The position numbers and the translations under genes were made by a program. Shown here piece by piece: positions 114 to 46,198 of a stretch of 64,000 bases of DNA. How positions within the stretch are numbered: position 1 is the first letter of the stretch; the number at the start of each line of letters is the position of its first letter. The DNA lies in assembly GCA_023954715.1 (NCBI GenBank), contig JAGSHD010000001.1:428468-492467 (forward strand). The letters run 5' to 3'. The stretch comes from Candidatus Cloacimonadota bacterium (GTDB lineage Bacteria; Muiribacteriota; UBA6191). Below the pieces are notes generated by a model that saw nothing but the letters and a program-made list of their open reading frames with translations, was not told where the DNA came from and did no database searches.

Positions 114-293
114 TTACGATTTAAAATCAATATTTACACCAGATGGCCCAAGAGGTGTGGTCGCCTTAAGCGTCAATGGGGCTTTTACTACGTCTGGATT
201 ATTTGATCCACTTTCGTTATTTACCGCGTCAATAATAGCTGTTCGAGCTCTCATAGAATCTACAACAGCCGTCATTAGTTTTGAAACTGACAT
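114..293 (-). CDS. Small hypothetical protein of 58 aa, below the ORF-track size cut-off
   Basis: ATG at 293-291 is preceded by AAAGGAG with 6-nt spacing. My translation is MSVSKLMTAVVDSMRARTAIIDAVNNESGSNNPDVVKAPLTLKATTPLGPSGVNIDFKS. Composition is ordinary and GC-richer than the flanks. A terminator hairpin lies downstream. Confidence 0.45.
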   Translation of the reverse strand: MSVSKLMTAVVDSMRARTAIIDAVNNESGSNNPDVVKAPLTLKATTPLGPSGVNIDFKS

Positions 294-362
294 AATGTAC
301 TCCTTTTTATTTTTGCCATATCGGCAGATTTGACAAAAACTTTACACTTTTTTGTCTTTTTT

Positions 363-395
363 TTGACAGAGGCATACAAAAACTATACAAATTGT
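363..395 (+). promoter_or_regulatory. Sigma70-like promoter candidate (TTGACA -35, then TATACA/TACAAAT -10-like)
   Basis: TTGACA at 363-368 with an A/T-rich -10-like hexamer about 16-18 nt downstream. It would drive a plus-strand transcript starting near 400 that ends at the terminator at 868-897. Confidence 0.3.
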
Positions 396-525
396 ACATT
401 TTTTGTTAACTTATTGTCATGAGATCAATAAACAATCTCAAACGTGCCCACAACTAATCAAAGTTAAACAGTTAAATCTATTTTTAAACTGCTTAATTAA
501 TATATCGACACTAGGAGAAATCATT

Positions 526-750
526 GTGAATCATCTTGCTGAGGAGAGCCCATCTATTATGAAGGTCAGCCATTCGAACCAACTTTTAAAAATGCCATCT
601 GGAGTTAACCCAACTATTACCCAAATTACTCATTTTACTCCAAGTACCGTAAGTAAAAGCCTTTATAAAAACTGTAGCCGGGACTTAAATTACAAAGTGA
701 GCATCTACGCTGATGTAATCCCCCCTGTAAGAGGACTTAGAAGAGCTTAA
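526..750 (+). CDS. Hypothetical small protein (75 aa) with a GTG start. This is an alternative to the 115-aa TTG-start ORF at 403..750; the region may instead be non-coding
   Basis: AGGAG at 513-517 lies 8 nt before GTG at 526, in the same frame as the track ORF. The TTG at 403 has no SD. The region is GC-richer than the flanks and sits inside a promoter-terminator-bounded unit. The protein has no recognisable family. Confidence 0.3.
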   Translation: MNHLAEESPSIMKVSHSNQLLKMPSGVNPTITQITHFTPSTVSKSLYKNCSRDLNYKVSIYADVIPPVRGLRRA

Positions 751-867: not shown

Positions 868-897
868 AGCTTCCCGTTGCAAGGAAGCTAGTTTTTT
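868..897 (+). terminator. Rho-independent terminator
   Basis: agcttcc (868-874) pairs with ggaagct (883-889), a 7-bp GC-containing stem with an 8-nt loop. TTTTTT follows at 892-897. Confidence 0.6.
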
Positions 898-984
898 GTA
901 TAATTAAAAAAGTGACTATTATATTGGATTAAATATTAAATAGACATTTCATCTTTCTAACAGACTAAAGGGTCTATTATATCA

Positions 985-2289
985 ATGAGCGAACTCTCTA
1001 CTTTACATAAAACTGTTGGAATCATCGCTAATGACGAAGACTTCGTCAACAAACTAAAACAAATATTTGCTACTCTTGACAATCAATCTTTTAACGCTAC
1101 TTACTGCGATAACTATCAGACAGCTAGTGAGTTTTTAGACTATGAGTTACCAAATATCTTAATTATTGATATTTCTTCTCCCATAGAAAACCTAGAACAA
1201 CTTCAAAAATCTTTGAAAGATGATCATTGGTTGGTTAACACCGGAGTGATTTTAGCAGCCCAAAGCAACGAAAGAGCCTCTTACATTGAAAAAGCTAGAG
1301 ACTGGAACCTCCTTTCCATCATAGATAAATCTAAATCTAAAGATTTTCAACGAGTCTTAGATTTTGTTCTAAGAAAATGGGATTTACTCAAAGACTCTAG
1401 TACATTTTCTCAATTTGAACAAAATCCAAATGGTACCATTATTATTAAAAATGACATGGAAGAAGCTGAGCGTACTGCTAATATGATCGCATCTTTTCTA
1501 TTTGAAACAGGTCGTATTGATCGTAAAAAGTTTTATAGTGTCAGCATGGGTTTATCAGAGTTACTTATAAATGCTGTTGAGCATGGTAATTGTGGTTTAA
1601 CCTTTGATTGTAAAACCCAACTTCTTGAAGATGATGTCAATATGGTAGACTATGTCCGTGAACTCGCTCAAAGCAATCCTGAAATTGGTAGAAAACGAGT
1701 ACAGCTCGACTACGAAATTCTCCATGATTGTTCGATCTGGAAGATAAGCGATGAAGGAGAAGGTTTTGATCACAGTGATTTTGTAGAACCAGATCCAGAG
1801 CGTTTGTTATTATCCCATGGCCGTGGGATTATCATGGCCCGAACTTGTAGCGATAAATTGGTCTATAACCCAAAGGGAAATGTAGCAACATTAACTTGTT
1901 ATCATAGTTCTGAAGAGCAAATCAATACGCCTGTTGGTTTCAGAGACGAAGAACACGTCAAAATTGACGTCGGTGGAAAAGTTTTTGATGAGGGTGAGTT
2001 CTCTTCTCACTTATTTTATATTCTAAGTGGTGAATTCGACGTTTTTAGTAACAATAAAAAATTAGGATCTTTAAAACCTAGTGATTTATTCGTAGGTGAA
2101 ATGAGTTTCTTACTTAATCAAAAACGTACAGCTACAGTTATAGCAACCTCTCCAGCTACTTTAATAAAATTGAGTAAACAATCTTTTATTAAAGTCGTAA
2201 AAAAATATCCTAATTATTTGATCTTGGTCTCTAGGCTGTTAGCTCAACGCTTGTCACGTTCAAATTCTGATACTGTTTACAAAATGTAA
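985..2289 (+). CDS. Three-domain signalling protein: receiver-like N-terminus, RsbW/SpoIIAB-like GHKL serine-kinase ATPase domain, C-terminal cyclic-nucleotide-binding (CAP-family) domain
   Basis: N-terminus: acidic pair NDED, then IIDIS and DKSK at receiver-like positions. Middle: LINAVEHGNCGL, an N-box of HATPase_c_2 anti-sigma kinases. C-terminus: FDEGEFSSHLFYILSGEFDV...GEMSFLLNQKRTATVIATSPATLIKL, a typical cNMP-binding beta-roll pattern. ATG at 985 with an AAAGGG SD-like sequence upstream. Confidence 0.6.
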   Translation: MSELSTLHKTVGIIANDEDFVNKLKQIFATLDNQSFNATYCDNYQTASEFLDYELPNILIIDISSPIENLEQLQKSLKDDHWLVNTGVILAAQSNERASYIEKARDWNLLSIIDKSKSKDFQRVLDFVLRKWDLLKDSSTFSQFEQNPNGTIIIKNDMEEAERTANMIASFLFETGRIDRKKFYSVSMGLSELLINAVEHGNCGLTFDCKTQLLEDDVNMVDYVRELAQSNPEIGRKRVQLDYEILHDCSIWKISDEGEGFDHSDFVEPDPERLLLSHGRGIIMARTCSDKLVYNPKGNVATLTCYHSSEEQINTPVGFRDEEHVKIDVGGKVFDEGEFSSHLFYILSGEFDVFSNNKKLGSLKPSDLFVGEMSFLLNQKRTATVIATSPATLIKLSKQSFIKVVKKYPNYLILVSRLLAQRLSRSNSDTVYKM

Positions 2290-2486: not shown

Positions 2487-5400
2487 TTATTTTATTTGAT
2501 ACTTATGCACCCTTTTACGCTCTTTTTCTAATACAAATAAATTAGACTTTCGCATAAGCACATCGATCGAACCAGATAGCTTTCTCATAGGATCACTAGA
2601 AGTTAATGAGTCATCTGTAGTGTTGATAAATTGTAACATAGGAAAACCAGCAGATGGATTTGTTGGGGCAGCAAAAATCTTTACCCCAGTACTATCGGCA
2701 ATAGCTATCTTATCATTACTACAATGCATATCTTTTACATTCGTCATGGTATGAACACTTGTCCCATCGAGATCATAAATTGGATAGCTCGAAAAGAAAA
2801 TATCATTTTGAATTTTTTTGGTACCTGCTGGGTAGGTAGCTACACTAAAACTATTGGCTGGAGAGTTTCCGGCTACTACTAAATAAGTACCCATATCACA
2901 AATACCTACACCACTAGTTTGTCCTGTATGAGTAGAACTCAAGTGAATCTCACTTTCAGAGAACATCTGTACACGATCTTCTGTACCCCCAGACTCTAGG
3001 ATCATCAATCTTTGTACCCCGCTATCTTGAACTAAATCAATTGCTTTTAACTTATAACCATTTTGACCAAAATTATCACGTGCTCCTAAAAAGGATCGTG
3101 GGTTTCTAGTAAAAGTCGTTTTTTGGCTTACTACCCGTTGATTTGGTACAACATTTGGCACATACTCTGGTAAGGTTGTACAAGCATCTGTCCAAGCTAC
3201 TGAAGGTACTACAGACGTACAGATAGCATTTTCGCCTTGAATCACACTAGTTAATATTGCTGTAAATCCAACACTCTGTAAATCATTAACAACGTATAAC
3301 TTATTATCTTGTTCTTCAATAAAGTATAAAGAACTACTGGTCGTTTTATAAGTCTCTAATGAATTAGTAAAGTAAGCCGAATTTAACAAATTAGTAGTAT
3401 TTTCGTTTACTCTTTCGTCTGAATAGATTAACTCTTGAATTTGGGTAGTATAACTTACTAATCCTAAAGATGCTGCAGATACTCTACTGTAAGCCGTATC
3501 AGAAGTATTATACACATCAAAGGTATCAAAGTTTGTATCAAGCATTAACCATTCATCATTTTTATATTCAGAAAGTAAGGCCGGCGCTTGTATCCCACCT
3601 AAACCATAAGGGTTGTCAGCAAAATAGTTTACAAATGTACCTGCGCTTGTAAATACAGATATACGTTTAGATACAGCGTCTGTGATATACAGATTACTAA
3701 AATTATTGCTATTAAGTGGACGAATTCCTCGAATACCATTTATAGACCTAAAGTTTTGGTCCTTATACCCAATTCCACCTATATATCCTACTCCCCCAAA
3801 GTCGGTAACGGCAGTCAATGTATCTGCTGAAGTAACTGAAAACTTATAAACTCTTAGGGTATTTTGATCGGAAATATAAACGGATTTACCGTCTTGATCT
3901 ACTTCTACTTGGCTTGGCTTTATCAATGGAAAAGTCCAACTTGTTAGTTTAGTAAACTTGGCTGAAGCTTCAAATGCAGAGTTAACGAAACGATAGCGTA
4001 CAATAGACTTTTCGTTTGGTAAAGTTAAATAGCTATACTCTACGGACTGACTGATACCTCCCGGTAATAATGAGTTTAATGTGTGAACTTGCGTAATTGC
4101 AATCGATGATACAGCAGAAGGAAAGTCTGCCGCTGTTCCGGTAGATTTTGCAAAGCCGCCTTCTGATGCTTGAACATAAACTTGATTGGTCAGTGGATCA
4201 ACATTTTTTGCAAAACTCTTTACATACCTTCTAAGATATAAATCTAAACCACTACTTGTTTGAGCAGCAACATATACAACAGATCCCAACTTTGGCGCAT
4301 ATCGTACTACAGCATTTGTTAAAAAATTATTGGCGCTTTCTGAAGCATCGTTTTCTCGGAAAATATGATTATCTGAGCCCTTTAGTACATTAGACTCTAA
4401 TACGAACTTACCAATCAACGCGGGACGATTAATTTGATTTTGTTCACTATTTTCTGTTTTTGGAAAATGTGCAATCTCTCCTTGAGTCGTAGTTAAAGTC
4501 CTACCAGAGTATTTACCTGACATTAAAAATGAACCTAGATTTTTAGTCCGATCATATACCATGTCAAATGAGTCTAATCTCTCAATTTGTCCGAAAAATA
4601 CGGAACTAGAGTTTTTGTTACCGACTATAGTAGTACGAGGATCTCCCCCTACTGAAAACTCTCTAACTTGAAGAGCTGACTTATCTGCAACAAATACAGT
4701 ATCTAAATTAGTGCCACCAAACCCCACTTGAATCGGTTCTTTAAACAAATCACCTCTGGTAATCGTTTTAGTAAATAATGGAAAAACATCTACGTTTGTT
4801 GTCAAAGTAGAAGCATTGCCATGAACATCGTTTGCTATAATATTAATTGTTAGCCCTTTTCCACTAGGTAAAGTCAACTCCGCTGAAAAACCAACGGATA
4901 CCAAAGGACTTAAAGTTGTAAACTTACTCCAAGGACTACTCGAAGTTTTTGTTGAAAAAGTTGTAGTACTGATAGCTGTACCATTAACAGAGATGGCTGT
5001 AACAGGTGACAACTCATCTTCTACAGTACCACTTACTTTATATTTTCCGCTTGTATTATCAGTAACCTGTGTAATTGCATCTACTTTAATAACAGGTGCT
5101 GTTTTATCTCGACGAAAATAAAGAGTACCATACTGTTTTAACGCCTTACTTGTATAGCCTCTCTCTTCAAATTTATCACTAGCATTATCTATTAAATCCA
5201 ATTTTAATGGCCATATTCCATCTTGATTTAATACAATCTCACCCTGAAAGGATACCCTAGAACTGACTCCTGCTGAACTCGTTGTCAAACGTACAAAATT
5301 TGTTTTAGTAGAGAAGGTGATATCTTTACCTAAAAGTTTGTTTATATCATCACTTTGAGGTGAAAATAGAGATAAATCTCCAAATCGAAAAGAAAAATTA

Positions 5401-8400
5401 TCAAATGTTCTCGTATCTGTACTAGTGCTTCCTCTAGATAGTTTAAATCCTGACTCATCCTCAATATATCCAGATATATGACCAATACAGCTACTAGTAG
5501 CGCAATTGGTATCAAAAACACTTGAGTTATAGGAGCTTCTTGTTTCGCTAATCAAGTATGGTAATGAAGTTAAATTAAAACCACTGGCCGATTGAATGAC
5601 TGCTCTTGGTTTTGTAATATCATTTAGGTTTAACTTTGTAAAAAAACTACTGTTTGTGAAACGTTTCACAAATCCATGTTGATCACTAATATAACCAGTC
5701 ACAAAATTTGATACACCCTCAGAAATCGGTAGTTTCACAGTCCAGTCCAAAAAGTTTGAAGTCACTATGGAGCAAGCTATCGTTGAACATAGACTCAATG
5801 TTGTTATCTTAGATAAGTCTGTTGCAGCCCCTTTAATTTCAACAATATTTGTTGTAACTAACTGCTCTAAAGAACCTTCGGGTAAGTTGGTGATAGCAAC
5901 TTCAGGGGGTGAAAAATCAACTGTAGCTATTTTAATATGTACAGCAGAAAGAGTTTTAAATTTTTGTGTTAAATCTGTAGTTCCACTATCATTGTTTTTG
6001 TCATCTGTTGCTGTGATTACTAAATCTATGTTATTGCCTTCACTGAGCCCTACTGTCTTCTCAAAGTTAAAGGTCTTTGTTTCAGTAAATACTTGATCAA
6101 CAGATATACCCGTCCTTACAAACTTTACATTATTTACATCACTTGCACTTGCAGATAAGGATATAGATTTGCTAGTTACAAAACCAAGCTGTACGCTGCT
6201 AGGGCTTTGATTTAAGTTAAAAGTATAATCACTATATAGTCCGTTTTGATTACTCACATTGCTAGAAAAATTTATAGGTTTTAAAGGATCACCACTTGTG
6301 AGAGTTGGCTGGGTGGCTACCCCTCTTACATTTAACTGAGATAATGTAATACTTGGCGGAATTACATCTAAGGACAAGAATTCTCGAACTATTGCAGTCT
6401 TATTGATGTTTCCTAACACATCTATAGCGTAAAACTCTAGTTTGTTTTTAATCCCCTGCTCTACAGGAACATCAATGATTTCAAAAGTGTTAAAGCTAAT
6501 CCCTGTATTTTTAGCATAAATACTAGTAATTGCTTGATCTTTCAAACTTACGTTCGAAACCCAAATACTCGTTACTCCAGATAAATCTACAGACTTTCCT
6601 AAAACCGTCAGTTTATTTAAGCCAAGAGCATTGCCATCATCTAACGGATAGGTGATATCAAGACTCGGAGATGTATTGTCCATCAAAGCAAAATAAGTTA
6701 CAATCTCATTTCCTACTATACTTGTGTTAGCAGATTCTGAAACCTTTACCGTGATACGAATATCTTCTTGATCTCCCAAACCAGTAGTATCTGCATCCAA
6801 AATTTCTTTATCCGTATGCCAATAAAATGTAGTAATTACTCCATTATTACTTGAAGATAAAGAAGGAATGATACCTGAACTTAAAAAAGTCGTATTAGCT
6901 GAAGATGAAAGGGATATTTTTGGGTCAGAAGGTAAAGTCAATAAGTTTTGCCCTAGGGTAAATGAAAACCGTAGATTGGCTGAATTTGACTCTTGATCAC
7001 TTATTTTCACACTTACTGGCACAATACCTTGAAGAGTACCATTCGATTGCGGAGTAAATGATACCATTGGTGCACTATTCAAAATTTGGATTTGGTCTAG
7101 CTGCCCTGAGCTTTGAGGCACTGCTTTTATATACTCTTCAGAAAGTGAAAAGTCGGGTAAAATTGTCTCACTTTCAAAGCCTAAAATATAATAGTCAAAA
7201 GCAGCAGTAACAATACTTGCAGAGCTAGTAGAACTTAACAAGTGATTTCTTAACTCTACTCCAAAAGAGTAAGTTTGATCTCCTACTAGTTGATCACTAA
7301 AAAATGAGTAGTAGCCTGAAGCATCTGTCTGCGCAAAGTGCCTAGCTCCATTACTATCTTCAGCGAAAACTGAGTAATAAGCAGCTGGAGTCTTACTTGC
7401 TCCCAACCCTTTAAAAATTCGCCCCTTTACATTTACTTTAACAGCATTCGTTTTTGGTATTTCATACTCTACTAAGCTACTAGTGGATAAAGTGGATAAC
7501 CCTTGTGCTATCGTATTGATAGCTGTATCTGTAGTGAAGTTCGATATTATAGATGAACTAGCTATCATACTTGACCATAAACTATCCATTTTGATTGGTT
7601 CAAAGTTCAATAGTTTTACGTTTTCTAATCTAGGTACTTTAGCCACAATTGGACTTGAAATATCTTTAAAGTATCCAATATCCTTGTCTAAAGAATAGCT
7701 CTGTTTAAACAAAAGAGGTATAAACTGTATCACTTCACGTAAGGAGATTTTAGAAGACATTGTCAATTGATTAGACATATTCTTTAATCTATATAATACC
7801 GCAAAATTACTTTCCAAAATCTCTATATCTGATTCAATCCAGTTATTATTTACTACACGTTGATTAGAAATATTTCTAAATATAAAGTTTTCACTCGCAA
7901 TTTCAGATAATGGATCTGGATAGCCATTGTTTAAATTGACAATGCTAAAGTTTGTCTTAGATAGACGTCCATATTCAGCTTGAAAGATCTTCTTAATTTG
8001 AGAAAAGTAATTTTGTGGTTCTTTTACTAACTTTTCAAACTCTACTAATGTAGTGTCAGTAAACTTCTTGCTTGACCAATAAGTCTTCATATCAGTGGCT
8101 AGCGTCGTTGTTTTTGAATATTGTGCTGACACCAATTGATCCTGTCCAAATAAAATTAGTCCTTCGGATGCTAGAGTTTTTTGAACTCTCTCTATTGAAT
8201 ATCTCTTTTGAGATAATACATTAGATACATTATCAATAACATTGTTTAAGCTAACAAAATACTGAGTATTCTTTTCACTTAAAGCCCCGATAGTTGACAC
8301 ACTCACCCACGGAAAACTATTTGCATCTCTAGAAATCCTTAAGGTTTTTTCTTTTGAAATCGTACCCGCATTTGCATAATTATTTAACTCCGTCAAATTT

Positions 8401-9476
8401 AAACGAAGTATATGATTGGGAGGTGGAAGTAAAGTTAAATCGCTAGTTGTTAAACTCACATCAAAGAATGCAATTAAATCATTACTGCTAATATAGCTTT
8501 TTATGGTCGGAGCATTGCCTTGATAAACTTTTTGCCAACGATCTTTAACAAAAAAGTTTCCAAGACCATCAGAAACATAATAACCAGCATTTAAAAATGT
8601 ATATAGCAACTGTAACTTTCGTCGTTTAAGTTGACTCCCTGAAGAAAGTGGTAAAGAGCTTTCCACAAAAACTTTTGATTTTAAATTATCTGATAAACTG
8701 AAAGATTCTTTCCAAGTTTTACTTGTTAATGCCAAGTTTTTTAACTCTCGTGAAAATGAAGATCCTGAACTCCCGTTAGTAGGTATCGAATCAACAATAT
8801 AGTTTGACTCCTGAAAGTCTGAGGCATTAAAAGTAAATTCGTTTTGAATTTTTATTGCGTTTTCAGACAAATCATCTAGAAGAAGATTCATCTCTTGGGT
8901 AATCTTAGAGTACGTTGGAGAACCTTGATCATTCACTCCACCAATCTTGGCTGATATTTCTTCTTTAACAAAGCGAAAAGCACTATCGGACAACAGGTTT
9001 ACTCCGATTTTATCACCGATAGAAGTTTGCCCTTGTTTCAATTGGGTAAAAGAAGTAAGTTCTTTGTTATCAAAAACCACTCGAACCAAAAGAGACTCTT
9101 TGGAGTTAGTAAATACGCCATCTCGAATCTGGTCGTCAGTAATAGAGAAGCTACCGTCAGAGTTTGTAATAATTACTGTTCCCGATTTTAAAATGCTATC
9201 TTGAAAGAAAATATCTGATGCTTTGTGTAAATAAACTCTACCTTTTCCAACTGGGTTACCAACTAAAGAGCTTGAAATGGATTTTGATATGCTGCTTATT
9301 TTAGATTTAGAAGGTAGAGTATTCGGAAAGTTTACTGTTCCTTGTAGAAAGATATTTGCTGGTGTACTCGTGGAAGATCCGGCTTCTTCGCTAAACCCCC
9401 CGCATCCAACCAAAGTAAGACACAAAAAGATACTTATAAATAGCTTTAATTGATTCCAATAATATTTGTTGTTCAT
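2487..9476 (-). CDS. Giant surface lipoprotein (2329 aa). Has a lipobox, a carboxypeptidase-regulatory-like N-terminal domain, Ser/Thr/Asn-rich probable Ig-like tandem domains and NHL/beta-propeller-like segments near the C-terminus
   Basis: ATG at 9476-9474. Signal peptide with LVGC lipobox (FLCLTLVGCGG). N-terminal GTVNFPNT...GRVYL...GTVIITNSDGSFSI resembles a CarbopepD_reg-like fold. C-terminal region carries NHL-like motifs (YISDQNTLRVYKF...YITDAVSKRISVF). Paralogous to the next gene. Confidence 0.7.
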   Translation of the reverse strand: MNNKYYWNQLKLFISIFLCLTLVGCGGFSEEAGSSTSTPANIFLQGTVNFPNTLPSKSKISSISKSISSSLVGNPVGKGRVYLHKASDIFFQDSILKSGTVIITNSDGSFSITDDQIRDGVFTNSKESLLVRVVFDNKELTSFTQLKQGQTSIGDKIGVNLLSDSAFRFVKEEISAKIGGVNDQGSPTYSKITQEMNLLLDDLSENAIKIQNEFTFNASDFQESNYIVDSIPTNGSSGSSFSRELKNLALTSKTWKESFSLSDNLKSKVFVESSLPLSSGSQLKRRKLQLLYTFLNAGYYVSDGLGNFFVKDRWQKVYQGNAPTIKSYISSNDLIAFFDVSLTTSDLTLLPPPNHILRLNLTELNNYANAGTISKEKTLRISRDANSFPWVSVSTIGALSEKNTQYFVSLNNVIDNVSNVLSQKRYSIERVQKTLASEGLILFGQDQLVSAQYSKTTTLATDMKTYWSSKKFTDTTLVEFEKLVKEPQNYFSQIKKIFQAEYGRLSKTNFSIVNLNNGYPDPLSEIASENFIFRNISNQRVVNNNWIESDIEILESNFAVLYRLKNMSNQLTMSSKISLREVIQFIPLLFKQSYSLDKDIGYFKDISSPIVAKVPRLENVKLLNFEPIKMDSLWSSMIASSSIISNFTTDTAINTIAQGLSTLSTSSLVEYEIPKTNAVKVNVKGRIFKGLGASKTPAAYYSVFAEDSNGARHFAQTDASGYYSFFSDQLVGDQTYSFGVELRNHLLSSTSSASIVTAAFDYYILGFESETILPDFSLSEEYIKAVPQSSGQLDQIQILNSAPMVSFTPQSNGTLQGIVPVSVKISDQESNSANLRFSFTLGQNLLTLPSDPKISLSSSANTTFLSSGIIPSLSSSNNGVITTFYWHTDKEILDADTTGLGDQEDIRITVKVSESANTSIVGNEIVTYFALMDNTSPSLDITYPLDDGNALGLNKLTVLGKSVDLSGVTSIWVSNVSLKDQAITSIYAKNTGISFNTFEIIDVPVEQGIKNKLEFYAIDVLGNINKTAIVREFLSLDVIPPSITLSQLNVRGVATQPTLTSGDPLKPINFSSNVSNQNGLYSDYTFNLNQSPSSVQLGFVTSKSISLSASASDVNNVKFVRTGISVDQVFTETKTFNFEKTVGLSEGNNIDLVITATDDKNNDSGTTDLTQKFKTLSAVHIKIATVDFSPPEVAITNLPEGSLEQLVTTNIVEIKGAATDLSKITTLSLCSTIACSIVTSNFLDWTVKLPISEGVSNFVTGYISDQHGFVKRFTNSSFFTKLNLNDITKPRAVIQSASGFNLTSLPYLISETRSSYNSSVFDTNCATSSCIGHISGYIEDESGFKLSRGSTSTDTRTFDNFSFRFGDLSLFSPQSDDINKLLGKDITFSTKTNFVRLTTSSAGVSSRVSFQGEIVLNQDGIWPLKLDLIDNASDKFEERGYTSKALKQYGTLYFRRDKTAPVIKVDAITQVTDNTSGKYKVSGTVEDELSPVTAISVNGTAISTTTFSTKTSSSPWSKFTTLSPLVSVGFSAELTLPSGKGLTINIIANDVHGNASTLTTNVDVFPLFTKTITRGDLFKEPIQVGFGGTNLDTVFVADKSALQVREFSVGGDPRTTIVGNKNSSSVFFGQIERLDSFDMVYDRTKNLGSFLMSGKYSGRTLTTTQGEIAHFPKTENSEQNQINRPALIGKFVLESNVLKGSDNHIFRENDASESANNFLTNAVVRYAPKLGSVVYVAAQTSSGLDLYLRRYVKSFAKNVDPLTNQVYVQASEGGFAKSTGTAADFPSAVSSIAITQVHTLNSLLPGGISQSVEYSYLTLPNEKSIVRYRFVNSAFEASAKFTKLTSWTFPLIKPSQVEVDQDGKSVYISDQNTLRVYKFSVTSADTLTAVTDFGGVGYIGGIGYKDQNFRSINGIRGIRPLNSNNFSNLYITDAVSKRISVFTSAGTFVNYFADNPYGLGGIQAPALLSEYKNDEWLMLDTNFDTFDVYNTSDTAYSRVSAASLGLVSYTTQIQELIYSDERVNENTTNLLNSAYFTNSLETYKTTSSSLYFIEEQDNKLYVVNDLQSVGFTAILTSVIQGENAICTSVVPSVAWTDACTTLPEYVPNVVPNQRVVSQKTTFTRNPRSFLGARDNFGQNGYKLKAIDLVQDSGVQRLMILESGGTEDRVQMFSESEIHLSSTHTGQTSGVGICDMGTYLVVAGNSPANSFSVATYPAGTKKIQNDIFFSSYPIYDLDGTSVHTMTNVKDMHCSNDKIAIADSTGVKIFAAPTNPSAGFPMLQFINTTDDSLTSSDPMRKLSGSIDVLMRKSNLFVLEKERKRVHKYQIK

Positions 9477-25375: not shown

Positions 25376-26377
25376 TTACAAAATACCTTGTTTTTCTTCG
25401 AGGCTTAATAATAGATTTAATATTTCTTCTTTAGATAAGTAGGTAGAATGCTCAGAGTCATAAATACTCTTATCAATTGATTCATCTTTGTTTACGGTGT
25501 GTCCTACAATCAACATTTCAGTCTCTTCTTTGCAGTAAGGCAACTCATGTGCAAATAAAAGCTCTTCATGTAGTTTTTCGCCCTCACGTGTGCCCACAAT
25601 ATTTAAATCAACCGTTTTTAATCCTTTTAAAGAAGCATACTCTCCACGAATTACTTCAACAAGATCTAATACACGAATACATGGCATCTTAAGAATGAAT
25701 GTTTCTCCATATTTAGCTAATTGCCCTGCTTGTAAAACTAATGATACTGCTTTTTGTAAAGTCATCACAAAACGAGTCATATCAGCATGAGTCAAAGTAA
25801 TGGATTTACCCTCTCTTAATTGAGATAAAAACAAGGGAATCACTGAGCCGCGAGTACCTAAAACATTACCAAATCGAACACAAGAAAAGATTGTTTTTCG
25901 AGGCCCCTTGTAGCGATTTGCTGTACCCATCAGTTTTTCAGCCAGTAATTTAGTAGTACCCATAGTATTAATTGGGTTAACAACTTTATCAGTGGAGACT
26001 AAAATTACTTTTTTAACGCCTTTTTCCATGGCAACTTCAATGATATTTTGAGTCCCAATTACATTTGTTTTAACAGCTTCAAATGGATTAAACTCACAAG
26101 ACGGAACTTGCTTTAAAGCAGCTGCATTAAATACATAGTCTACGTTTTCCATTGCTAGTGACAATCGTGACTTATCTCGAATATCTCCCATCAAAAAACG
26201 AACTTTAGAGGTATCGTCTAACTCCTGATGAAAACAATATTGTTTGTATTCATCTCTAGACAAGACTCGAATAGAAGCAGGTTCATATTTCAAGACCTCT
26301 TGAACTAAAGCACGCCCGATAGAGCCGGTACCACCCGTGACCAATATTGTTTTACCTTTGAGATAATCTAAGCCCAT
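25376..26377 (-). CDS. pseB: UDP-N-acetylglucosamine 4,6-dehydratase (PseB/CapD/FlaA1 family)
   Basis: KTILVTGGTGSIGRAL Rossmann motif, 333-aa length, YxxxK region. Position in a nucleotide-sugar operon. Confidence 0.75.
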   Translation of the reverse strand: MGLDYLKGKTILVTGGTGSIGRALVQEVLKYEPASIRVLSRDEYKQYCFHQELDDTSKVRFLMGDIRDKSRLSLAMENVDYVFNAAALKQVPSCEFNPFEAVKTNVIGTQNIIEVAMEKGVKKVILVSTDKVVNPINTMGTTKLLAEKLMGTANRYKGPRKTIFSCVRFGNVLGTRGSVIPLFLSQLREGKSITLTHADMTRFVMTLQKAVSLVLQAGQLAKYGETFILKMPCIRVLDLVEVIRGEYASLKGLKTVDLNIVGTREGEKLHEELLFAHELPYCKEETEMLIVGHTVNKDESIDKSIYDSEHSTYLSKEEILNLLLSLEEKQGIL

Positions 26378-26378
26378 T

Positions 26379-27470
26379 TTAGCTCCGATCTAAGACCATT
26401 AAATTTGAGGGAGTATTCCCATTGTCTAAATGTACTAAAGTCCCTTTATTTTGGCAAGAATTATATATACAATCTATGACTTTTACAGCATCTAAACCAT
26501 CTTGAATTGTGGACTGATTGGGAGCCTTCGACTCGATGATATCAAGTAAATGTTTTAAACGACTTTTAAACGGATTGATGGCTGTTGGCAGCTCTAATTG
26601 CTTAGGCTTTAAAAACGGTGAGTTACTCGGCTTTTGAAAAAAGCTGATATTTCCGTGAGAATCAATCAATTTTGCTCTCTCCCATTGAATTTGTATTTCA
26701 AAATGAAAGTACCTTCTTCTTCCACCTACTAAAAAACTGCCTAATACATTGTTTTCAAAAAACATATTACCCAAACAAGTATCCTCAGTTAACAGATTTT
26801 TCTTTTCTTGGCTAGCCACTCCGTTTACGCTTAAAGGTCGTCCAGCATACCAAACCATCAAATCAAACAAATGAGTCCCATCATGCAATAGTGGGCCACC
26901 AAAGTAGCTTTTTTCTTTTTGCCCTTTTGATTTTTTTACAAAAGATCCACAATGAATTTCACCATGAATTGATTTCAATTTACCCAACCCTCTTTTATTG
27001 ATTAAACTTTTATAGAAAGAAAAACTAGAATAAAAACGCCGATCGTGGCAAACAACAACATTTAACCCCTTCAAAAGCTCTTGAATTTCAATAGCTTCTT
27101 TTGTATCCATCCCTACAGGTTTTTCTAATAGAACTCCAAAAACTTGATTAGATTTTGCATATTCAGCTACAATTTGACAAGATTCCAAATGAGCACTAGA
27201 GCTTGCACAGATTGAGATGATATTTGGTTTAAGCTCTTGTAAGATGTTTTTTAGATTTTTACTAGCAGTCTTAACTCCGGTATAACTCTCTTCAAACAAG
27301 TCGCATTGATTTTGATCTATATCATATCCACCGATCAAGTCTACTTCTTGATGATCAAAATAAGCCCCAGCATGTGTACAAGGAAAAGTTCGAAAGCTAT
27401 CCTGCTCCATAGTAAAAGCAATACGGCCCAATCCAATAACAAATGCTTTATACATATAATTCAGACTCAT
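26379..27470 (-). CDS. Gfo/Idh/MocA-family NAD(P)-dependent oxidoreductase
   Basis: N-terminal VIGLGRIA dinucleotide-binding motif and EKP catalytic-region motif (LLEKPVG). Confidence 0.65.
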   Translation of the reverse strand: MSLNYMYKAFVIGLGRIAFTMEQDSFRTFPCTHAGAYFDHQEVDLIGGYDIDQNQCDLFEESYTGVKTASKNLKNILQELKPNIISICASSSAHLESCQIVAEYAKSNQVFGVLLEKPVGMDTKEAIEIQELLKGLNVVVCHDRRFYSSFSFYKSLINKRGLGKLKSIHGEIHCGSFVKKSKGQKEKSYFGGPLLHDGTHLFDLMVWYAGRPLSVNGVASQEKKNLLTEDTCLGNMFFENNVLGSFLVGGRRRYFHFEIQIQWERAKLIDSHGNISFFQKPSNSPFLKPKQLELPTAINPFKSRLKHLLDIIESKAPNQSTIQDGLDAVKVIDCIYNSCQNKGTLVHLDNGNTPSNLMVLDRS

Positions 27471-28368
27471 ATTTCATCATAATTAAATGCTCATGCTCCA
27501 CTTCAAAACTACTAATTTTACGATCACAAGCCCACTCCAATAAATTTTGGCAAAAATCTAATCCAGCTGCAATTGTTAATGGGATTCCGCCTGAAAACCT
27601 TGGATTAATTTCAAGAAAATAGAACTCATTGTTATGCTCAATACACTGAATATTCCAGGGACCTTTTAATGCAAAATTTTGATTTATGGATTGAATCAAC
27701 TCAATCAATTTTTGATTCATACAAACATATCCAACATCAGATACCCCTGCTCGAACTTTATCTCGAACTCTGGGTAAAATATTTATTATATTGCAATCAT
27801 TATCACTGAATACATCAACAGTATACTCCTTACCATCAACCCATTTTTGTATAAAACCATTTGTCAGTCTAGGCCAAAACACATCTAACTCTGCATCTGA
27901 GTAAATCTTAAATTGATTTACTGACCCATAACCTAAATCTTCTTTTAAAACAGAAGGATAAGATTTAGACCCATTTTTTTGATAAATTTCAGGTACATTC
28001 AAACCGTGCTTTTTAAAAAACTCTGCTGACTCGGTTTTCGATAAAAACTTCTTTAATGTTGACCCAGAGTCTAAAACACGAACCTTTGAGTCAATAGGAT
28101 TACTTAGAAAATACTTTAAATCTAAATCACTCCCCGGAAGGATAAAATCAATTTGATACTTATCTAATACATCTTTCAATGCTTCATTAAAGTTTGCATG
28201 ATCCATTCTTGGCACCATTTCAAAATAATCACAAAATCGCAAAGATGGAGTATGCTCATAAATCTCAGTACCAACTAATTTTAATGGGATATCTAATTTT
28301 TTTGCCGCCTGTCTAAGAAGTTTAATTAAAGTGACTCTTCGGCCTGTGCTTGGGAGTAAAATATTCAT
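27448..28368 (-). CDS. ATP-grasp domain ligase
   Basis: C-terminal LEINPRFSGG and neighbouring KGPWNIQCIEHNNEFYFLE match the ATP-grasp fold (CPSase-like). Confidence 0.6.
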   Translation of the reverse strand: MNILLPSTGRRVTLIKLLRQAAKKLDIPLKLVGTEIYEHTPSLRFCDYFEMVPRMDHANFNEALKDVLDKYQIDFILPGSDLDLKYFLSNPIDSKVRVLDSGSTLKKFLSKTESAEFFKKHGLNVPEIYQKNGSKSYPSVLKEDLGYGSVNQFKIYSDAELDVFWPRLTNGFIQKWVDGKEYTVDVFSDNDCNIINILPRVRDKVRAGVSDVGYVCMNQKLIELIQSINQNFALKGPWNIQCIEHNNEFYFLEINPRFSGGIPLTIAAGLDFCQNLLEWACDRKISSFEVEHEHLIMMKYESELYV

Positions 28369-29282
28369 TGAGGATGGTCTTCTTTTTGAAAAGGGATGTC
28401 ACACTGTGCACAAAGCCCACTACATTTGCTGCTAGTCTTATTTAAAGAGAAGCTGTCTTTTCTAGCAATAAGCCACTTTCGTAGCGAAACCATTTCTTTT
28501 GAGTTCCAGGCATCCATAATGGGTATATTTTTACCTAATGGATAAATCCCATCAAAATCTACACAACAAGGAACAAAAGTGCCATCCCACAAAACGGCCA
28601 TGGACCTCCATGGATAAGAACATATATTGTATTGCTTAACCACATCCTCTGTTTTAAGACCATCTAAATATCCAATCCAGTTTCTGTATACTTTTACATT
28701 TAAATAGTCTGGATTGAGCAATTTCATTTGCTTTTTGAAATCCTCGATAAGATCTCTTGTTTCATCTAACTCTATTACCTCTATTGTAATTTCACAGCTA
28801 GATTTTAACTCATTTTTTAGCTCAATAACTCTTGTTATATTTGCTAAAGTTGTTTCATAATTACCATTTACTCTTAAGGACTCGTAAATCTCTTTATTTA
28901 CGCCTTCAAAAGAAATTGTTATATGTTGAATCCCCGTTTTTAAAAGAGCAATGGCCTTCTTTTCATTTAAAAAAGATGCATTGGTATTTAATCTACACTC
29001 CAAACCACGCTTTACAATTTCTTCAATCATAAAAAAGAGTTCTTTGTGCATTAAAGACTCACCCAAAAAGAACAAGTTAATCTTTTTAACTCCACAGTTA
29101 CATGCATCTTCTAAAAGATTTAAAAAGACTTCTCTCTCCATAAACCCTTTATCTCTAGTTTGATCTTTTTGAGGACAAAAAACACATGCTAAATTACAAT
29201 GATTGGTTGGTTCAATGAATAGTGTATAAGGTGCGTTGTCGCACACTGCTGATCGGTTTTTATATTTTTCCAGATTGTCCAT
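28365..29282 (-). CDS. Radical SAM enzyme with a SPASM-like C-terminal Cys cluster
   Basis: IEPTNHCNLACVFCPQ is a canonical Cx3Cx2C. C-terminus carries CCVDFDG...CSGLCAQC. Confidence 0.7.
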   Translation of the reverse strand: MDNLEKYKNRSAVCDNAPYTLFIEPTNHCNLACVFCPQKDQTRDKGFMEREVFLNLLEDACNCGVKKINLFFLGESLMHKELFFMIEEIVKRGLECRLNTNASFLNEKKAIALLKTGIQHITISFEGVNKEIYESLRVNGNYETTLANITRVIELKNELKSSCEITIEVIELDETRDLIEDFKKQMKLLNPDYLNVKVYRNWIGYLDGLKTEDVVKQYNICSYPWRSMAVLWDGTFVPCCVDFDGIYPLGKNIPIMDAWNSKEMVSLRKWLIARKDSFSLNKTSSKCSGLCAQCDIPFQKEDHPQ

Positions 29283-30210
29283 GTTGAATTATTAGATCTA
29301 CTACAAGCTTTGTAGAGTCTTCTCCGTTTAGTTTTTGAAAGTGCTTTACTATACTATCGACATCTTCTATTTCAAAGACTTCATTTATAGCTTTTATCAA
29401 TTGAGTTTCGTCAAAATTATGGTGTAAACCAAAGTATTGCCCCAATTTATGATGAACCAAGTTTAATGCTGTTGTTTCTTGCTCTTGATTTTGCGCAATC
29501 ATTAACGGAATACAGCCTGACTTTAAAGCCTCGTACGCTGTAATTCCTCCTGAGCAAATAATCACCTTATAGGCTCCCATAAATAATGAAAGCTGTTTTA
29601 CATTTTCTAAAAAAGTTAGTTTTGGAAAAGCCTCTTTTAAAAAATGTCTACGCTTTTGGGTAAACCCAGGACCAATCACAATATCTAAATTATCCATAGA
29701 ACATTTTTTTAAAAACTGCTCTGTTATCTCATTGGGGTCTGATCCCCCAAAACTCAGTAATACTTTATTATTTTTTACCTGTTTTTTTATACCGCGTCCA
29801 AAGACAAAATACTTTACACCGATATACTCTACTCTTTGATTTAAATTAAGAACTTGATGATCTAACCCTAGTAAAGTACTACAAATATGAACATCAACCA
29901 AATACCGAAGATCAGATAATTCATCTATGGCTATTGTAGTAATCTCATCTACTGCTGAGTAAAATGACTTTGGAAACTCAGGCTCATCTATAATTAAAAC
30001 ATCAGCAGACTTACAGAGCTTCAAAAACTCTTTTTCTGAATCAATATGTAATGCAGTAAAATCAAGTAAAAGCATAGCTTTTTGTGAATGAAAATGTACA
30101 AAAAGAACTTCGTATCCTTTGTAAGCTAGCTCTTTGGCAATGACTTCCAATCTCTTTAAATGACCAAAGCCGATCGAGACACTAGCCTCTGTCTTTAGCA
30201 AAAACTTCAT
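29260..30210 (-). CDS. PseG/SpsG-like UDP-sugar hydrolase (MurG-like GT-B fold)
   Basis: SIGFGHLKRLEVIAKEL matches the GxGHxxR signature of the PseG family. 316 aa. Confidence 0.5.
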   Translation of the reverse strand: MKFLLKTEASVSIGFGHLKRLEVIAKELAYKGYEVLFVHFHSQKAMLLLDFTALHIDSEKEFLKLCKSADVLIIDEPEFPKSFYSAVDEITTIAIDELSDLRYLVDVHICSTLLGLDHQVLNLNQRVEYIGVKYFVFGRGIKKQVKNNKVLLSFGGSDPNEITEQFLKKCSMDNLDIVIGPGFTQKRRHFLKEAFPKLTFLENVKQLSLFMGAYKVIICSGGITAYEALKSGCIPLMIAQNQEQETTALNLVHHKLGQYFGLHHNFDETQLIKAINEVFEIEDVDSIVKHFQKLNGEDSTKLVVDLIIQHGQSGKI

Positions 30211-30920
30211 ACTCTATTTTGCTCTACTTGACGATTCATTTCAAATATATTGGGTTTGCTTTGAAACAGCTCTGCTATTTCTTTTATAGAAATTTCATAA
30301 GGGTCTTTTTGTAAAGTTGTACAAATAGCTCGAACCATATCTAAGTCTAATTGCTCATCAATCGTCAATCGCAAATCAGACAAAGACTTATATTTTTGTC
30401 TAAAAACTCCGCATTTATAGATATCTTGCCTTTGATAATAAGCACAAGTCACATGCTCTTTTTGAAAGTCATCTTGTTTATCCTGCGCTTGTTTTAAAAA
30501 GCTTTTTTTAGTTAATATTTCAAAGCTACAACCCAAAGGTAAATCAACATTTAAAATACGATCTAAATTTACGCTTTTCATTTGATCTAACATGGCTAGA
30601 TAGTCACTCACTTCAACAAATGGATTGTCTCCTGTTACCCTTGCGAAATATGGAGTCTTGAGATTTTTTACTACATCTAAAAACCTCTGAAAAACATTTT
30701 CTTCACTTCCCCTATAAACAGTAATATTTCGATCTTTACAAAATACTTCTAGCTCATCATCTTGCTTAGAGTCAGATGTTAAAATAATAGTATTATGATG
30801 ATTAATCCTATGAACTATGTTTTCGATCAAAGACTCTTTGTATAGTTTCATCAAAACTTTCTTAGGAAGTCTCTTAGAGCCTAATCTAGCTTGTACTAGA
30901 AAAGTAATTTCTTCACTCAT
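30207..30920 (-). CDS. CMP-nonulosonic-acid cytidylyltransferase family (PseF/SpsF/NeuA-like)
   Basis: N-terminal ARLGSKRLPKKVL motif is typical of this family. First gene of the minus-strand operon. Confidence 0.65.
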   Translation of the reverse strand: MSEEITFLVQARLGSKRLPKKVLMKLYKESLIENIVHRINHHNTIILTSDSKQDDELEVFCKDRNITVYRGSEENVFQRFLDVVKNLKTPYFARVTGDNPFVEVSDYLAMLDQMKSVNLDRILNVDLPLGCSFEILTKKSFLKQAQDKQDDFQKEHVTCAYYQRQDIYKCGVFRQKYKSLSDLRLTIDEQLDLDMVRAICTTLQKDPYEISIKEIAELFQSKPNIFEMNRQVEQNRV

Positions 30921-43001: not shown

Positions 43002-44174
43002 TTAAGGTCTAAAAGTTTTACGCTTGATTTTAAAAGCTTTAGCCAGAACTTCAGCAGCAGCTGCAAAAAGAGTCTCTGAGATTTCTTGATTTAGTCCTAC
43101 TTGACGATAGAGCGCTCTTGCAAGCGGCTTATCCTCTATGATTGGTACGTCATTCTCACGTGCAATCTCTTTAATCTTATGAGCTATAATATTTTGTCCT
43201 TTAGCTACAACAACAGGAGCCGCAAAACCAGACTCCCTATCGTACTTTAAAGCAACAGCAAAATGAGTCGGGTTGGTTACCACGACATCGGCCTTAGGGA
43301 CCTCAGACATCATGTTACCTTGTGCCATCTCCATTTGCTTTTGTCGAATTTTAGCCTTTACTTGTGGGTCCCCATCCGTTTGCTTTCTCTCTTCTTTTAC
43401 TTCTTGCTTGGACATTTTTAAATCTTCGTTTGTTTTCCACTTTTGATACATCAAATCAAACAAACCATAAATAACCAAAACCAAGCCCATTTCAATAATC
43501 AAACGCACCATTAACCAAGCAATATAGTCCAAGGCATGGCCAATGGTCTCACCAAACAGTGCAGTCATCGTAGGATATTCATTGATAAACATTTTATAAG
43601 GAAAGTATCCTAAAATTACAAGCTTAATCAAAGACTTAGCTAATTCAACTAAAGCTTGTTTACCAATGATTTTTTTCATCCCATTTACAGGATTAAATCT
43701 CTGTAAATCTGGGGTCATGGATTCTGTAGAAAAATTAATCCCTACTTGTGAAATCTGAACGGTCATGGTTAAAATTATAACCACAAAAAATAATGGGCCC
43801 ATGATCAAGTACCAATATAAAATAATATCTAAAAAATAGATCCACATATCATTGGCTGTCATTTCTTGTACTTCAAACATTCGTAAGGAGCGATTAAACA
43901 TGTCACCAACGGCACCATAAAAACGCGGTAACATCATATAAACAAAAATCGTTAAAATCATTAAGTTTATTGCAGAGTTTAGATCCTCACTTTTGGGTAT
44001 GTTTCCCTTTTTTCGTGCATCAGCTTTACGCTTATCTGTCGGCTCTTCTGTTTTTTCCCCAGCGCTTTCTTCGAACTGAGTTAAATTTAATGGAAGCAGT
44101 AAGTCTAAGCTATCTAACTCTAAAGCAAATTGGTTTAGTTTATGGCCGCTGATATGTCTTTGATCTACTATCAT
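43002..44174 (-). CDS. flhB: Flagellar export-gate protein FlhB
   Basis: EKTEEPTDKRKADARKKGNIPKSEDL N-terminal signature, four TM helices, and the NPTHFAVALKY autocleavage motif. Confidence 0.85.
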   Translation of the reverse strand: MIVDQRHISGHKLNQFALELDSLDLLLPLNLTQFEESAGEKTEEPTDKRKADARKKGNIPKSEDLNSAINLMILTIFVYMMLPRFYGAVGDMFNRSLRMFEVQEMTANDMWIYFLDIILYWYLIMGPLFFVVIILTMTVQISQVGINFSTESMTPDLQRFNPVNGMKKIIGKQALVELAKSLIKLVILGYFPYKMFINEYPTMTALFGETIGHALDYIAWLMVRLIIEMGLVLVIYGLFDLMYQKWKTNEDLKMSKQEVKEERKQTDGDPQVKAKIRQKQMEMAQGNMMSEVPKADVVVTNPTHFAVALKYDRESGFAAPVVVAKGQNIIAHKIKEIARENDVPIIEDKPLARALYRQVGLNQEISETLFAAAAEVLAKAFKIKRKTFRP

Positions 44175-44938
44175 ACGAAATTACCTAAAAACGACGCCAT
44201 ATCTTTAAAGGAGTTGCCATACAATGCCTTTATCAGATTTACCATAAAAGGTAAAATAATAATATAAGTTACCATTCCAACTACAATTTGAAGAGGAATA
44301 CCTACCATAAAAATGTTTAGCTTAGGCATAGTTCTAGCCAAAACTCCCAATGCAAAATTAATCATAAATAATGGTGCTAAAATAGGTAAACTAATTTGTA
44401 CTGCTATTAAAAATATCTTATAAAAAGTATGAATCAAAATTGGAATACCTGTTACCTCAAAGGAAAACTCTCCTAAAGGAATAACAAAGTAGGAGTTTTG
44501 GTATGCATTAAAGACATAATGATGACCATCAATTACCAAAAATAAAAATGTCGCCAATGTAGAATTAAACTGCCCCATTGTAGTAGATCCCTCACCACTA
44601 GCAGGGTCAACAGCAGTTGCTATAGATAAACCCATTGGAGTCGAAATAATCGAACCTGAAAAGTTTAAAACTTCATTGACCAAAGCTACATTTAGTCCAA
44701 TTAATACACCAACAGCAAACTCTTTAACGCTGATGATCACTAGAGTTACATCATCCACAATAGGTACAAAAGTGTCTATTGGGATAGTAAAAAAGATAGA
44801 TAAACTTACCAAAAAGGCCATAAAAGCCTTAGCTTTAACAGGAAAGTTATTACTCGAAATCAAAGGAGTCATCATCAAAACTCCAACAAAACGAATAAAG
44901 CACAAAAAGAAGTTAATTATCGTTTCTACAGAGTCCAT
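44171..44938 (-). CDS. fliR: Flagellar export-gate protein FliR
   Basis: 255-aa polytopic membrane protein directly between fliQ and flhB with overlapping stop/start codons. Confidence 0.8.
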   Translation of the reverse strand: MDSVETIINFFLCFIRFVGVLMMTPLISSNNFPVKAKAFMAFLVSLSIFFTIPIDTFVPIVDDVTLVIISVKEFAVGVLIGLNVALVNEVLNFSGSIISTPMGLSIATAVDPASGEGSTTMGQFNSTLATFLFLVIDGHHYVFNAYQNSYFVIPLGEFSFEVTGIPILIHTFYKIFLIAVQISLPILAPLFMINFALGVLARTMPKLNIFMVGIPLQIVVGMVTYIIILPFMVNLIKALYGNSFKDMASFLGNFV

Positions 44939-45207
44939 TATCCGATGTATAAGTCGATATTTTCAATTAGATTAATGGCCCAGGTACTAATCTTAGATAT
45001 CATCCAAGGCCCCAATGCAATCACCGTACTCATCGTTGCTACTACTTTTGGAATAAATGTCAGGGTTTGCTCTTGTAAAGAAGTAGTTGTTTGAAAAACA
45101 GAAACAGCTAGTCCAACAACCAGACCTACTAACAAAGGAGGCAAGCCAACTAACATGGCCATCCACATGGTATCTTTTACTAAATTCATTGCAACTAGTT
45201 CGTTCAT
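44938..45207 (-). CDS. fliQ: Flagellar export-gate protein FliQ
   Basis: 89 aa with two TM helices. Position between fliP and fliR. Confidence 0.8.
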   Translation of the reverse strand: MNELVAMNLVKDTMWMAMLVGLPPLLVGLVVGLAVSVFQTTTSLQEQTLTFIPKVVATMSTVIALGPWMISKISTWAINLIENIDLYIG

Positions 45208-46079: not shown

Positions 46080-46198
46080 ACAAAAACGTAAAGATTTGGT
46101 AAACTTTTGTCGATGTACTGAATTTATCCTATTTTTTAGAGGATCGCAAGGATTAAATAATCCTATGATCAAAATAGAGCTATCTATAAGCAAATAGA

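Follow-up and report, generated by a model that had tools for sequence, protein, structure and literature searches.

A receiver-like, RsbW/SpoIIAB/LvrC-type GHKL and cyclic-nucleotide-binding fusion protein from a Candidatus Cloacimonadota bacterium and its mostly spirochaete family

A 64,000-nucleotide (nt) stretch of the genome of a Candidatus Cloacimonadota bacterium (GenBank assembly GCA_023954715.1, contig JAGSHD010000001.1, positions 428,468 to 492,467 of the forward strand), in the following called the window, carries a gene for a protein of 434 amino acids (aa) in which a receiver-like domain, a GHKL domain of the anti-σ factor type and a cyclic-nucleotide-binding (CNB) domain follow one another. 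We demonstrate here the identities and folds of the domains, the conservation of their motifs and the distribution of the family, and that no partner gene is linked. The reading that we prefer, at roughly even confidence, is that the protein is a soluble, free-standing anti-σ factor or serine kinase of the RsbW/SpoIIAB/LvrC type, controlled by a cyclic nucleotide monophosphate (cNMP), with a receiver-like domain that is mainly structural. For this reading we infer that a ligand is bound, that the protein acts as a kinase or an anti-σ factor, and which way the regulation runs.

An earlier reading of the same DNA, made from the sequence only, had described one open reading frame (ORF) encoding three linked domains. 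The ORF is exactly as it was placed there, and its description as three domains is borne out, by Pfam for two of them and by AlphaFold2 (AF2) and Foldseek for all three. The motifs quoted in the sequence-only reading were also found, N16-D17-E18-D19, I60-I61-D62-I63-S64 and D114-K115-S116-K117 in the receiver-like domain, and L193-I-N196-A-V-E-H-G-N202 in the GHKL domain. A search for the protein gave a match of 100% identity, P0001, whose name reads 'MAG: Candidatus Cloacimonetes bacterium, cyclic nucleotide-binding domain-containing protein', where MAG stands for metagenome-assembled genome. In Pfam the C-terminal domain matched cNMP_binding (PF00027) at aa 333-408 (E 4.9e-14, 52.5 bits, cut-off 27.5), and the middle domain matched HATPase_c_2 (PF13581) at aa 156-304 (E 1.9e-10, 41.3 bits, cut-off 27.4), so both domains were named correctly from the letters. 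NCBIfam gave no more specific assignment; its CRP model reached 32.3 bits against a cut-off of 266 bits and covered the CNB part only.

The AF2 model, made with 47 relatives, shows three folded units with a mean predicted local distance difference test score (pLDDT) of 84.4 and a predicted template modelling (pTM) score of 0.65. An α/β GHKL unit spans residues 149-306, and the CNB β-roll is followed by a C-helix at 409-433. Foldseek against the PDB put the Leptospira protein LvrC (9qih) on top, with E 1e-17 over 311-322 columns that cover both the receiver-like and the GHKL domain. Below LvrC came the CNB domains of CRP, GlxR and SthK, and then SpoIIAB (1th8/1til), with a target-normalised template modelling score of 0.74-0.75. 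When phmmer was run with aa 121-312, which take in the GHKL domain and a little on either side of it, LvrC (9qih_A) was the sole sequence match in the PDB (E 1.1e-15), and the alignment continued through the segment of about 50 residues between the N-box and G1. The matches to the CNB domain in the PDB include PKG, PKA-R, SthK and CRP. The protein ends one residue past the CNB C-helix, without a helix-turn-helix (HTH) motif. A CRP-like transcription factor was considered and rejected, because no HTH stands C-terminal of the CNB domain.

The N-terminal domain is less easily named. As a single sequence it stayed below the Pfam gathering threshold for Response_reg (PF00072; E 0.08, 13.6 bits, cut-off 30.2), and just four of the 26 family members scanned gave this match at E<=1. 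The AF2 model shows the alternating topology of a receiver, β1 at 9-14, α1, β2 at 36-41, α2, β3 at 58-62, α3, β4 at 87-92, α4, β5 at 109-114 and α5; most blocks of ten residues have a mean pLDDT of 79-96, and D62 terminates β3. A family profile of the domain matched receiver domains exclusively in the PDB, among them RcpA (2.9e-6) and Rcp1 (1.4e-4). Homology of the N-terminal domain to REC is thus supported by the AF2 topology, by the profile matches to PDB receivers and by the Foldseek alignment to LvrC, yet membership at the family level is unsupported.

Conservation was assessed in 120 relatives, of which 20 belong to the clade of the query, with at least 39% identity, and 100 to a spirochaete clade. 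All 120 have the ATP-binding motifs of the GHKL domain intact, that is E192, N196, H200 and G201 of the N-box, D256, G258 and G260 of G1, and G279 and G281 of G2. In the phosphate-binding cassette of the CNB domain G371 and R381 are identical in every relative, E372 in 119 and A383 in 117, and position 382 is Ser or Thr in 116; the Arg and Glu that the sequence-only reading had singled out for a conservation check are therefore nearly invariant. The mean pairwise identity is 0.51 for the CNB domain, 0.44 for the GHKL domain and lowest, 0.29, for the receiver-like domain. The strongest selection is on ATP binding in the GHKL domain and on the cassette for the cNMP. Since the catalytic E192/N196 and the G1 and G2 motifs are invariant, the ATP chemistry is under selection, and not protein binding alone.

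The receiver-like domain gives another picture. Conservation of at least 90% is reached in only four columns out of 122 (P56, D80, W82 and N108), none of them a residue of the phosphorylation chemistry, and the signature of the family in this domain is D80-x-W82. To place the active-site residues we mapped the positions of CheY by hhalign, by the alignment to RcpA and by the AF2 model; the single-sequence hhalign match to CheY is weak and local (E 0.029), serves for position mapping only and was cross-checked against the RcpA alignment. The CheY quintet D12, D13, D57, T87 and K109 then corresponds to N16, D17, D62, A92 and K115, with three of the five retained in the query. The position of N16 is acidic in six of the 120 relatives and never in the query's clade, and that of D17 is Asp in about 75% of the relatives. 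At A92, Ser or Thr occurs in 12 of the 120, and the query's clade has A, V, I or S. The position of K115 is K or R in 16 of the 20 clade members and in a minority elsewhere. The acceptor position, D62, is Asp in the whole of the query's clade (20/20), and among the 100 relatives of the spirochaete clade Asn takes its place in 78, His in 4 and Cys in 1, with Asp in the other 17. The sequence-only reading had named the loss of this Asp in homologs as something that would refute it, and the outcome is divided, as the residue is kept in the close relatives and lost in 83 of the 100 more distant ones. Two residues further on, in the β3-α3 loop, the query and 84 of the 100 spirochaete-clade relatives have Ser, and 12 of the 20 relatives in the query's clade have Asp or Glu. 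By its residues, the receiver-like domain is a degenerate receiver. Of the receiver named at first, the (βα)5 fold and the Asp at the end of β3 stand, and the sub-threshold Pfam score and the incomplete quintet speak against a standard member.

The fusion was at first called unusual, which does not hold. At least 508 protein clusters share the architecture, as do at least 519 loci among species-representative genomes, mostly of Spirochaetota, and the annotation is generic throughout. The 120 clusters listed are all about 390-580 aa long and all have both PF13581 and PF00027, and of the 80 loci listed 68 are labelled Spirochaetota, six are from the query's clade (NORP72 'Cloacimonadota', UBP17 and unclassified) and six carry other phylum labels. 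Leadbettera azotonutricia, Breznakiella homolactica and Thiospirochaeta perfilievii are cultured carriers. One member of 576 aa (P0015) has an additional C-terminal CNB domain, in which the GEMSFLL...RTA cassette is intact. It is thus a large, widespread and mostly spirochaete family, and not a one-off, and it is inherited vertically across a phylum, unlike a defence island. Searches of a literature library gave no paper on the combination of a REC-like, a HATPase_c_2 and a CNB domain. The parts and their logic are already known; the addition of a CNB domain to such a fusion is uncharacterised. With a family that is mostly spirochaete, the 'Cloacimonetes' label of the source MAG may merit re-examination.

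No gene for a STAS protein, a σ factor, a PP2C phosphatase or a class III cyclase was found in the window by Pfam, in essentially all ORFs of at least 100 aa, and none of the small ORFs in the intergenic gaps of the window fits a STAS protein. The sequence-only reading had seen no STAS partner nearby, and this is now confirmed for the whole window. Nor did the Pfam annotation of the ORFs give a histidine kinase gene in the window. In 88 related loci, an unbiased all-against-all clustering of the neighbouring ORFs gave no family in more than nine loci, and no STAS or σ gene recurs beside the homologs.

The neighbours that do recur belong to single lineages. A GAF-HD/HD_5 gene, of the HD-GYP type, lies 5' of the homolog in about nine Spirochaetales loci, three of them checked with Pfam. 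Its stop overlaps the start of the homolog by 4 nt in L039 (4169..6001), L049 (4145..6001) and L087 (4145..6001), and in L018 (2958..4886) a FabH-like gene stands between the two. At L017 a REC-PAS-HD_5 gene (7465..9114) is found 3' of the homolog, and in Thiospirochaeta perfilievii (L004, 9299..10099) cdaA-ybbR directly abuts it. At one locus of the query's clade an HTH_17-REC gene adjoins the homolog. In seven loci of termite-gut Treponema, including L028, L029, L072, L076, L082 and L086, a conserved ORF of 95 aa follows on the same strand about 60-150 nt 3' of the homolog; it has no Pfam match, its product is probably all-helical, and it is a candidate for a lineage-specific partner in these bacteria. 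The sole nucleotide-cyclase-type gene in the window encodes a diguanylate cyclase (Table 1).

RsbW/SpoIIAB-type modules are normally controlled via the phosphorylation of STAS partners. The RsbW and SpoIIAB proteins of Bacillus share with the target the GHKL fold, the HATPase_c_2 family and the ExxxN, DxGxG and GxG motifs, all intact in the target. They consist of one domain, are about 140-160 aa long and share an operon with their STAS antagonist and σ factor, whereas the target has an insertion of about 30 residues, two flanking domains of the sensor type and no linked STAS or σ gene. The β-roll, the G-E...R-[ST]-A cassette and the C-helix of its CNB domain are like those of CRP/FNR, PKA and PKG. 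Unlike CRP/FNR, the target is without a DNA-binding HTH, and its CNB domain is C-terminal, with GHKL as the output.

Among proteins of solved structure, the target is closest to LvrC (LIC11110) of Leptospira interrogans, deposited as 'SenB' (9QIH) and described in a 2026 paper on LvrB (PMC13269768). In LvrC a canonical Rec domain is joined to a Bergerat-fold domain, and the protein is phosphorylated by LvrB; the crystal structure is a dimer with ADP:Mg, and the authors put LvrC forward as an anti-σ factor under the control of its Rec domain (PMC13269768). The target resembles it in the order of a receiver fold and a Bergerat/HATPase_c_2 domain of the same subtype, in which the long segment that separates the N-box from G1 is shared as well, and LvrC is a spirochaete protein, as are most members of the target family. 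The two differ in that LvrC has 304 aa and no CNB domain, which the target adds at its C-terminal end, and in that the Rec domain of LvrC is canonical (D53, Y-T switch) and the target's receiver degenerate. The N-terminal profile of the target does not single out LvrC among the receivers in the PDB. A precedent for a receiver and an RsbW-like domain in one polypeptide is given by HsbR of Pseudomonas and CrsR of Shewanella, Rec-PP2C-kinase/anti-σ regulators (PMC6482189). In these a PP2C domain separates the two, a phosphorelay feeds a receiver that works, the STAS partner (HsbA/CrsA) is adjacent, and a CNB domain is lacking; the target has no PP2C match in Pfam and no STAS gene nearby.

In the preferred reading, a 3',5'-cyclic nucleotide would bind the C-terminal CNB domain, as the intact cassette suggests. 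Binding would flip the GHKL domain between two states, via the hinge and the C-helix of the CNB domain. In one of the states the GHKL domain would sequester a σ factor and/or phosphorylate a Ser of an antagonist protein, and in the other it would do neither; the partners would be encoded elsewhere in the genome. The degenerate receiver would serve the whole family as a scaffold for dimerisation or regulation, comparable to the Rec domains in the LvrC dimer, with no obligatory phospho-acceptor. From the comparison with LvrC, such a scaffold is the most likely role of the domain across the family. The D62 kept in the query's clade may leave room for a residual or atypical phosphorylation there. 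In favour of the reading as a whole are the matches to LvrC and SpoIIAB, the near-invariant ATP-binding and cassette residues beside a variable receiver, the signals of a separate transcription unit and, in some lineages, the coupling of the gene to cyclic-nucleotide enzymes such as the GAF-HD/HD_5 proteins and CdaA.

Several points weigh against this reading. HATPase_c_2 domains can also be kinases for targets other than σ factors, and the R-[ST]-A cassette is found in both cAMP- and cGMP-binding CNB domains, so the cassette does not discriminate between the ligands. The Asp at position 62 in all 20 members of the query's clade is contrary to a purely structural receiver there. The path by which the CNB domain would be coupled to the GHKL domain is a proposal. 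It is homology that points to an anti-σ or partner-switch output, because σ, STAS and PP2C genes are absent from the window and do not recur beside the homologs; of the σ-factor control suggested by the sequence-only reading, the homology stands and a nearby partner was not found. The anti-σ role of LvrC is itself its authors' inference, and its σ partner is 'yet unknown' (PMC13269768).

It is also conceivable, if rather doubtful, that the protein, regulated by a cNMP, acts as a Ser/Thr protein kinase or ATPase on something other than a σ factor, for instance on enzymes of second-messenger metabolism. The model for such an output is the SiaB-type HATPase_c_2 kinases. The invariant ATP-binding residues would fit such a protein, as would the lack of a linked σ or STAS gene and the linkage, in some lineages, to GAF-HD-GYP-type phosphodiesterases and cdaA. 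However, this linkage to phosphodiesterases or a cyclase is seen in just about ten of the 88 loci, and the nearest structural relatives, LvrC and SpoIIAB, are putative or actual anti-σ factors.

We consider it unlikely that the protein integrates two inputs, with a working receiver that takes a phosphoryl group at D62, from an orphan histidine kinase or from acetyl-phosphate, and controls the RsbW-like domain jointly with the cNMP. D17, D62 and K115 are structurally well placed for this in the query, the Asp is kept throughout its clade, the Rec domain of LvrC is a substrate of LvrB, and one clade-mate has the HTH_17-REC gene beside the homolog. Against it stand the Asn and Ala at the positions of CheY D12 and T87, the sub-threshold Response_reg score, the low conservation of the domain compared with the other two, and the lack of a histidine kinase gene in the window. 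Furthermore, as most of the spirochaete-clade homologs are without the Asp, the function shared by the family does not need it. Two-input integration seems plausible for the query's clade only, where it is weakened by N16 and A92. The integration of two signals had been put forward in the sequence-only reading; its cNMP half is well supported by the intact cassette, and its phosphoryl half is weakened by N16, A92 and the variability of the domain.

Less probable again is a self-contained partner switch gated by the cNMP. The CNB domain would here gate the anti-σ/kinase domain, and the pseudo-receiver would replace the absent STAS antagonist, possibly via its β3-α3 loop. The family would then be a major cNMP effector that has so far been missing from the picture in spirochaetes. 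If this were true, the levels of cyclic nucleotides would be wired straight to the availability of a σ factor, with no separate partner gene.

An anti-phage effector of the Pycsar type, in which the CNB domain senses a phage-induced cyclic pyrimidine and turns on a toxic effector domain, was rejected as highly improbable: the CNB domain does match the CNB part of the PADLOC PycTIR/effector models (E 5.8e-18) and PycTIR in the PDB (8jsk, E 8e-6), but the match is confined to aa 323-428, the target has no TIR or transmembrane effector in Pfam, neither in the window nor in the related loci does a cyclase gene adjoin it, the chromosomal synteny within the clade is stable, and the family has spread vertically.

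The coordinates of the gene, its domains and the other features of the window, which has a G+C content of about 34%, are collected in Table 1. The upstream terminator, a promoter-like site of its own and a convergent next gene make the target look monocistronic, and from these signals it looks like a free-standing transcription unit. The synteny in the clade is constant, with malQ, cvpA, the small ORFs and the target gene, and the two giant ORFs convergent on the target.

Table 1. Features of the window, with positions counted from its first letter
Feature	Position	Strand	Remarks
Small ORF, 59 aa	114..293	-	conserved with the NORP72 relative
Small ORF, about 71 aa	about 535..750	+	divergent from 114..293; conserved with the NORP72 relative
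Hairpin and T-run, terminator of the upstream unit	868..889	+	
σ70-like promoter candidate, TTGCAA-16-TATAAT	877..904	+	10/12 match, about 80 nt 5' of the ATG; consensus match only
Target ORF, three-domain protein, stop codon included	985..2289	+	ATG start, 434 aa
Receiver-like (βα)5 domain, aa 9-130	1009..1374	+	AF2 topology, family profile, Foldseek
RsbW/SpoIIAB/LvrC-type GHKL domain (HATPase_c_2, Bergerat fold), aa 149-306	1429..1902	+	Pfam, LvrC match, Foldseek
CNB domain, β-roll and C-helix, aa 323-433	1951..2283	+	Pfam, PDB matches
Phosphate-binding cassette F369-V-G371-E372-M-S-F-L-L-N-Q-K-R381-T382-A383-T-V385	2089..2139	+	
Giant Ser/Thr-rich ORF, 2,329 aa	2487..9476	-	downstream gene, convergent with the target; lipoprotein-like N-terminus (LTLVGCGG)
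Giant Ser/Thr-rich ORF, 2,231 aa	9721..16416	-	in tandem with 2487..9476
Sugar-nucleotide cluster resembling a nonulosonic-acid pathway	25376..30920	-	Polysacc_synt_2 dehydratase, GFO oxidoreductase, ATP-grasp, radical SAM/SPASM, CTP_transf_3 cytidylyltransferase
Protein like Major Vault Protein (MVP), 483 aa	31247..32698	+	MVP repeat (Vault_4), SPFH/Band 7, MVP shoulder
flhB, fliR, fliQ, fliP flagellar export genes	43002..46193	-	
sCache_3_2-GAF-GGDEF diguanylate cyclase	47746..49521	-	beside a phosphonate-binding-type periplasmic protein
Protein of 1,432 aa	50550..54848	-	N-terminal zinc ribbon, then about 11 HEAT_2 units (PBS-lyase HEAT-like)

A block of 370 nt upstream of the target, at 226..595, has 78% nucleotide identity to NORP72, and within it an intergenic promoter region of about 110 nt between the two small ORFs is nearly invariant and has two copies of ACAAAAACT(T/A)TACA. 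The small ORFs and the block gave no match in Pfam or Rfam. A non-coding RNA or leader was considered for the block and rejected, as there was no Rfam, tRNA or tmRNA match and the alignment shows two small divergent ORFs with a promoter region, followed by a terminator before the target.

On the other side of the target gene, the homologs of the two giant ORFs have no Pfam match on record. The nearer one is conserved in synteny, with a homolog that converges on the target gene in six of the related loci (L001, L007, L008, L010, L011 and L014), and a homolog of the farther one was seen only in L007/L008. The window also carries an MVP-like protein in a bacterium, a large HEAT-repeat protein, a sugar-nucleotide cluster and flagellar export genes.

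The control of RsbW-like modules by a receiver is a recent addition to the field, made with HsbR/CrsR and LvrC. A conserved CNB domain on a module of the RsbW type would give a direct signalling route from a cyclic nucleotide to a σ factor or a protein kinase. The family also offers a clear case of a receiver decaying to a pseudo-receiver while the flanking domains stay tightly constrained, and it is a natural comparison set for LvrC, a component of a virulence pathway in pathogenic Leptospira.

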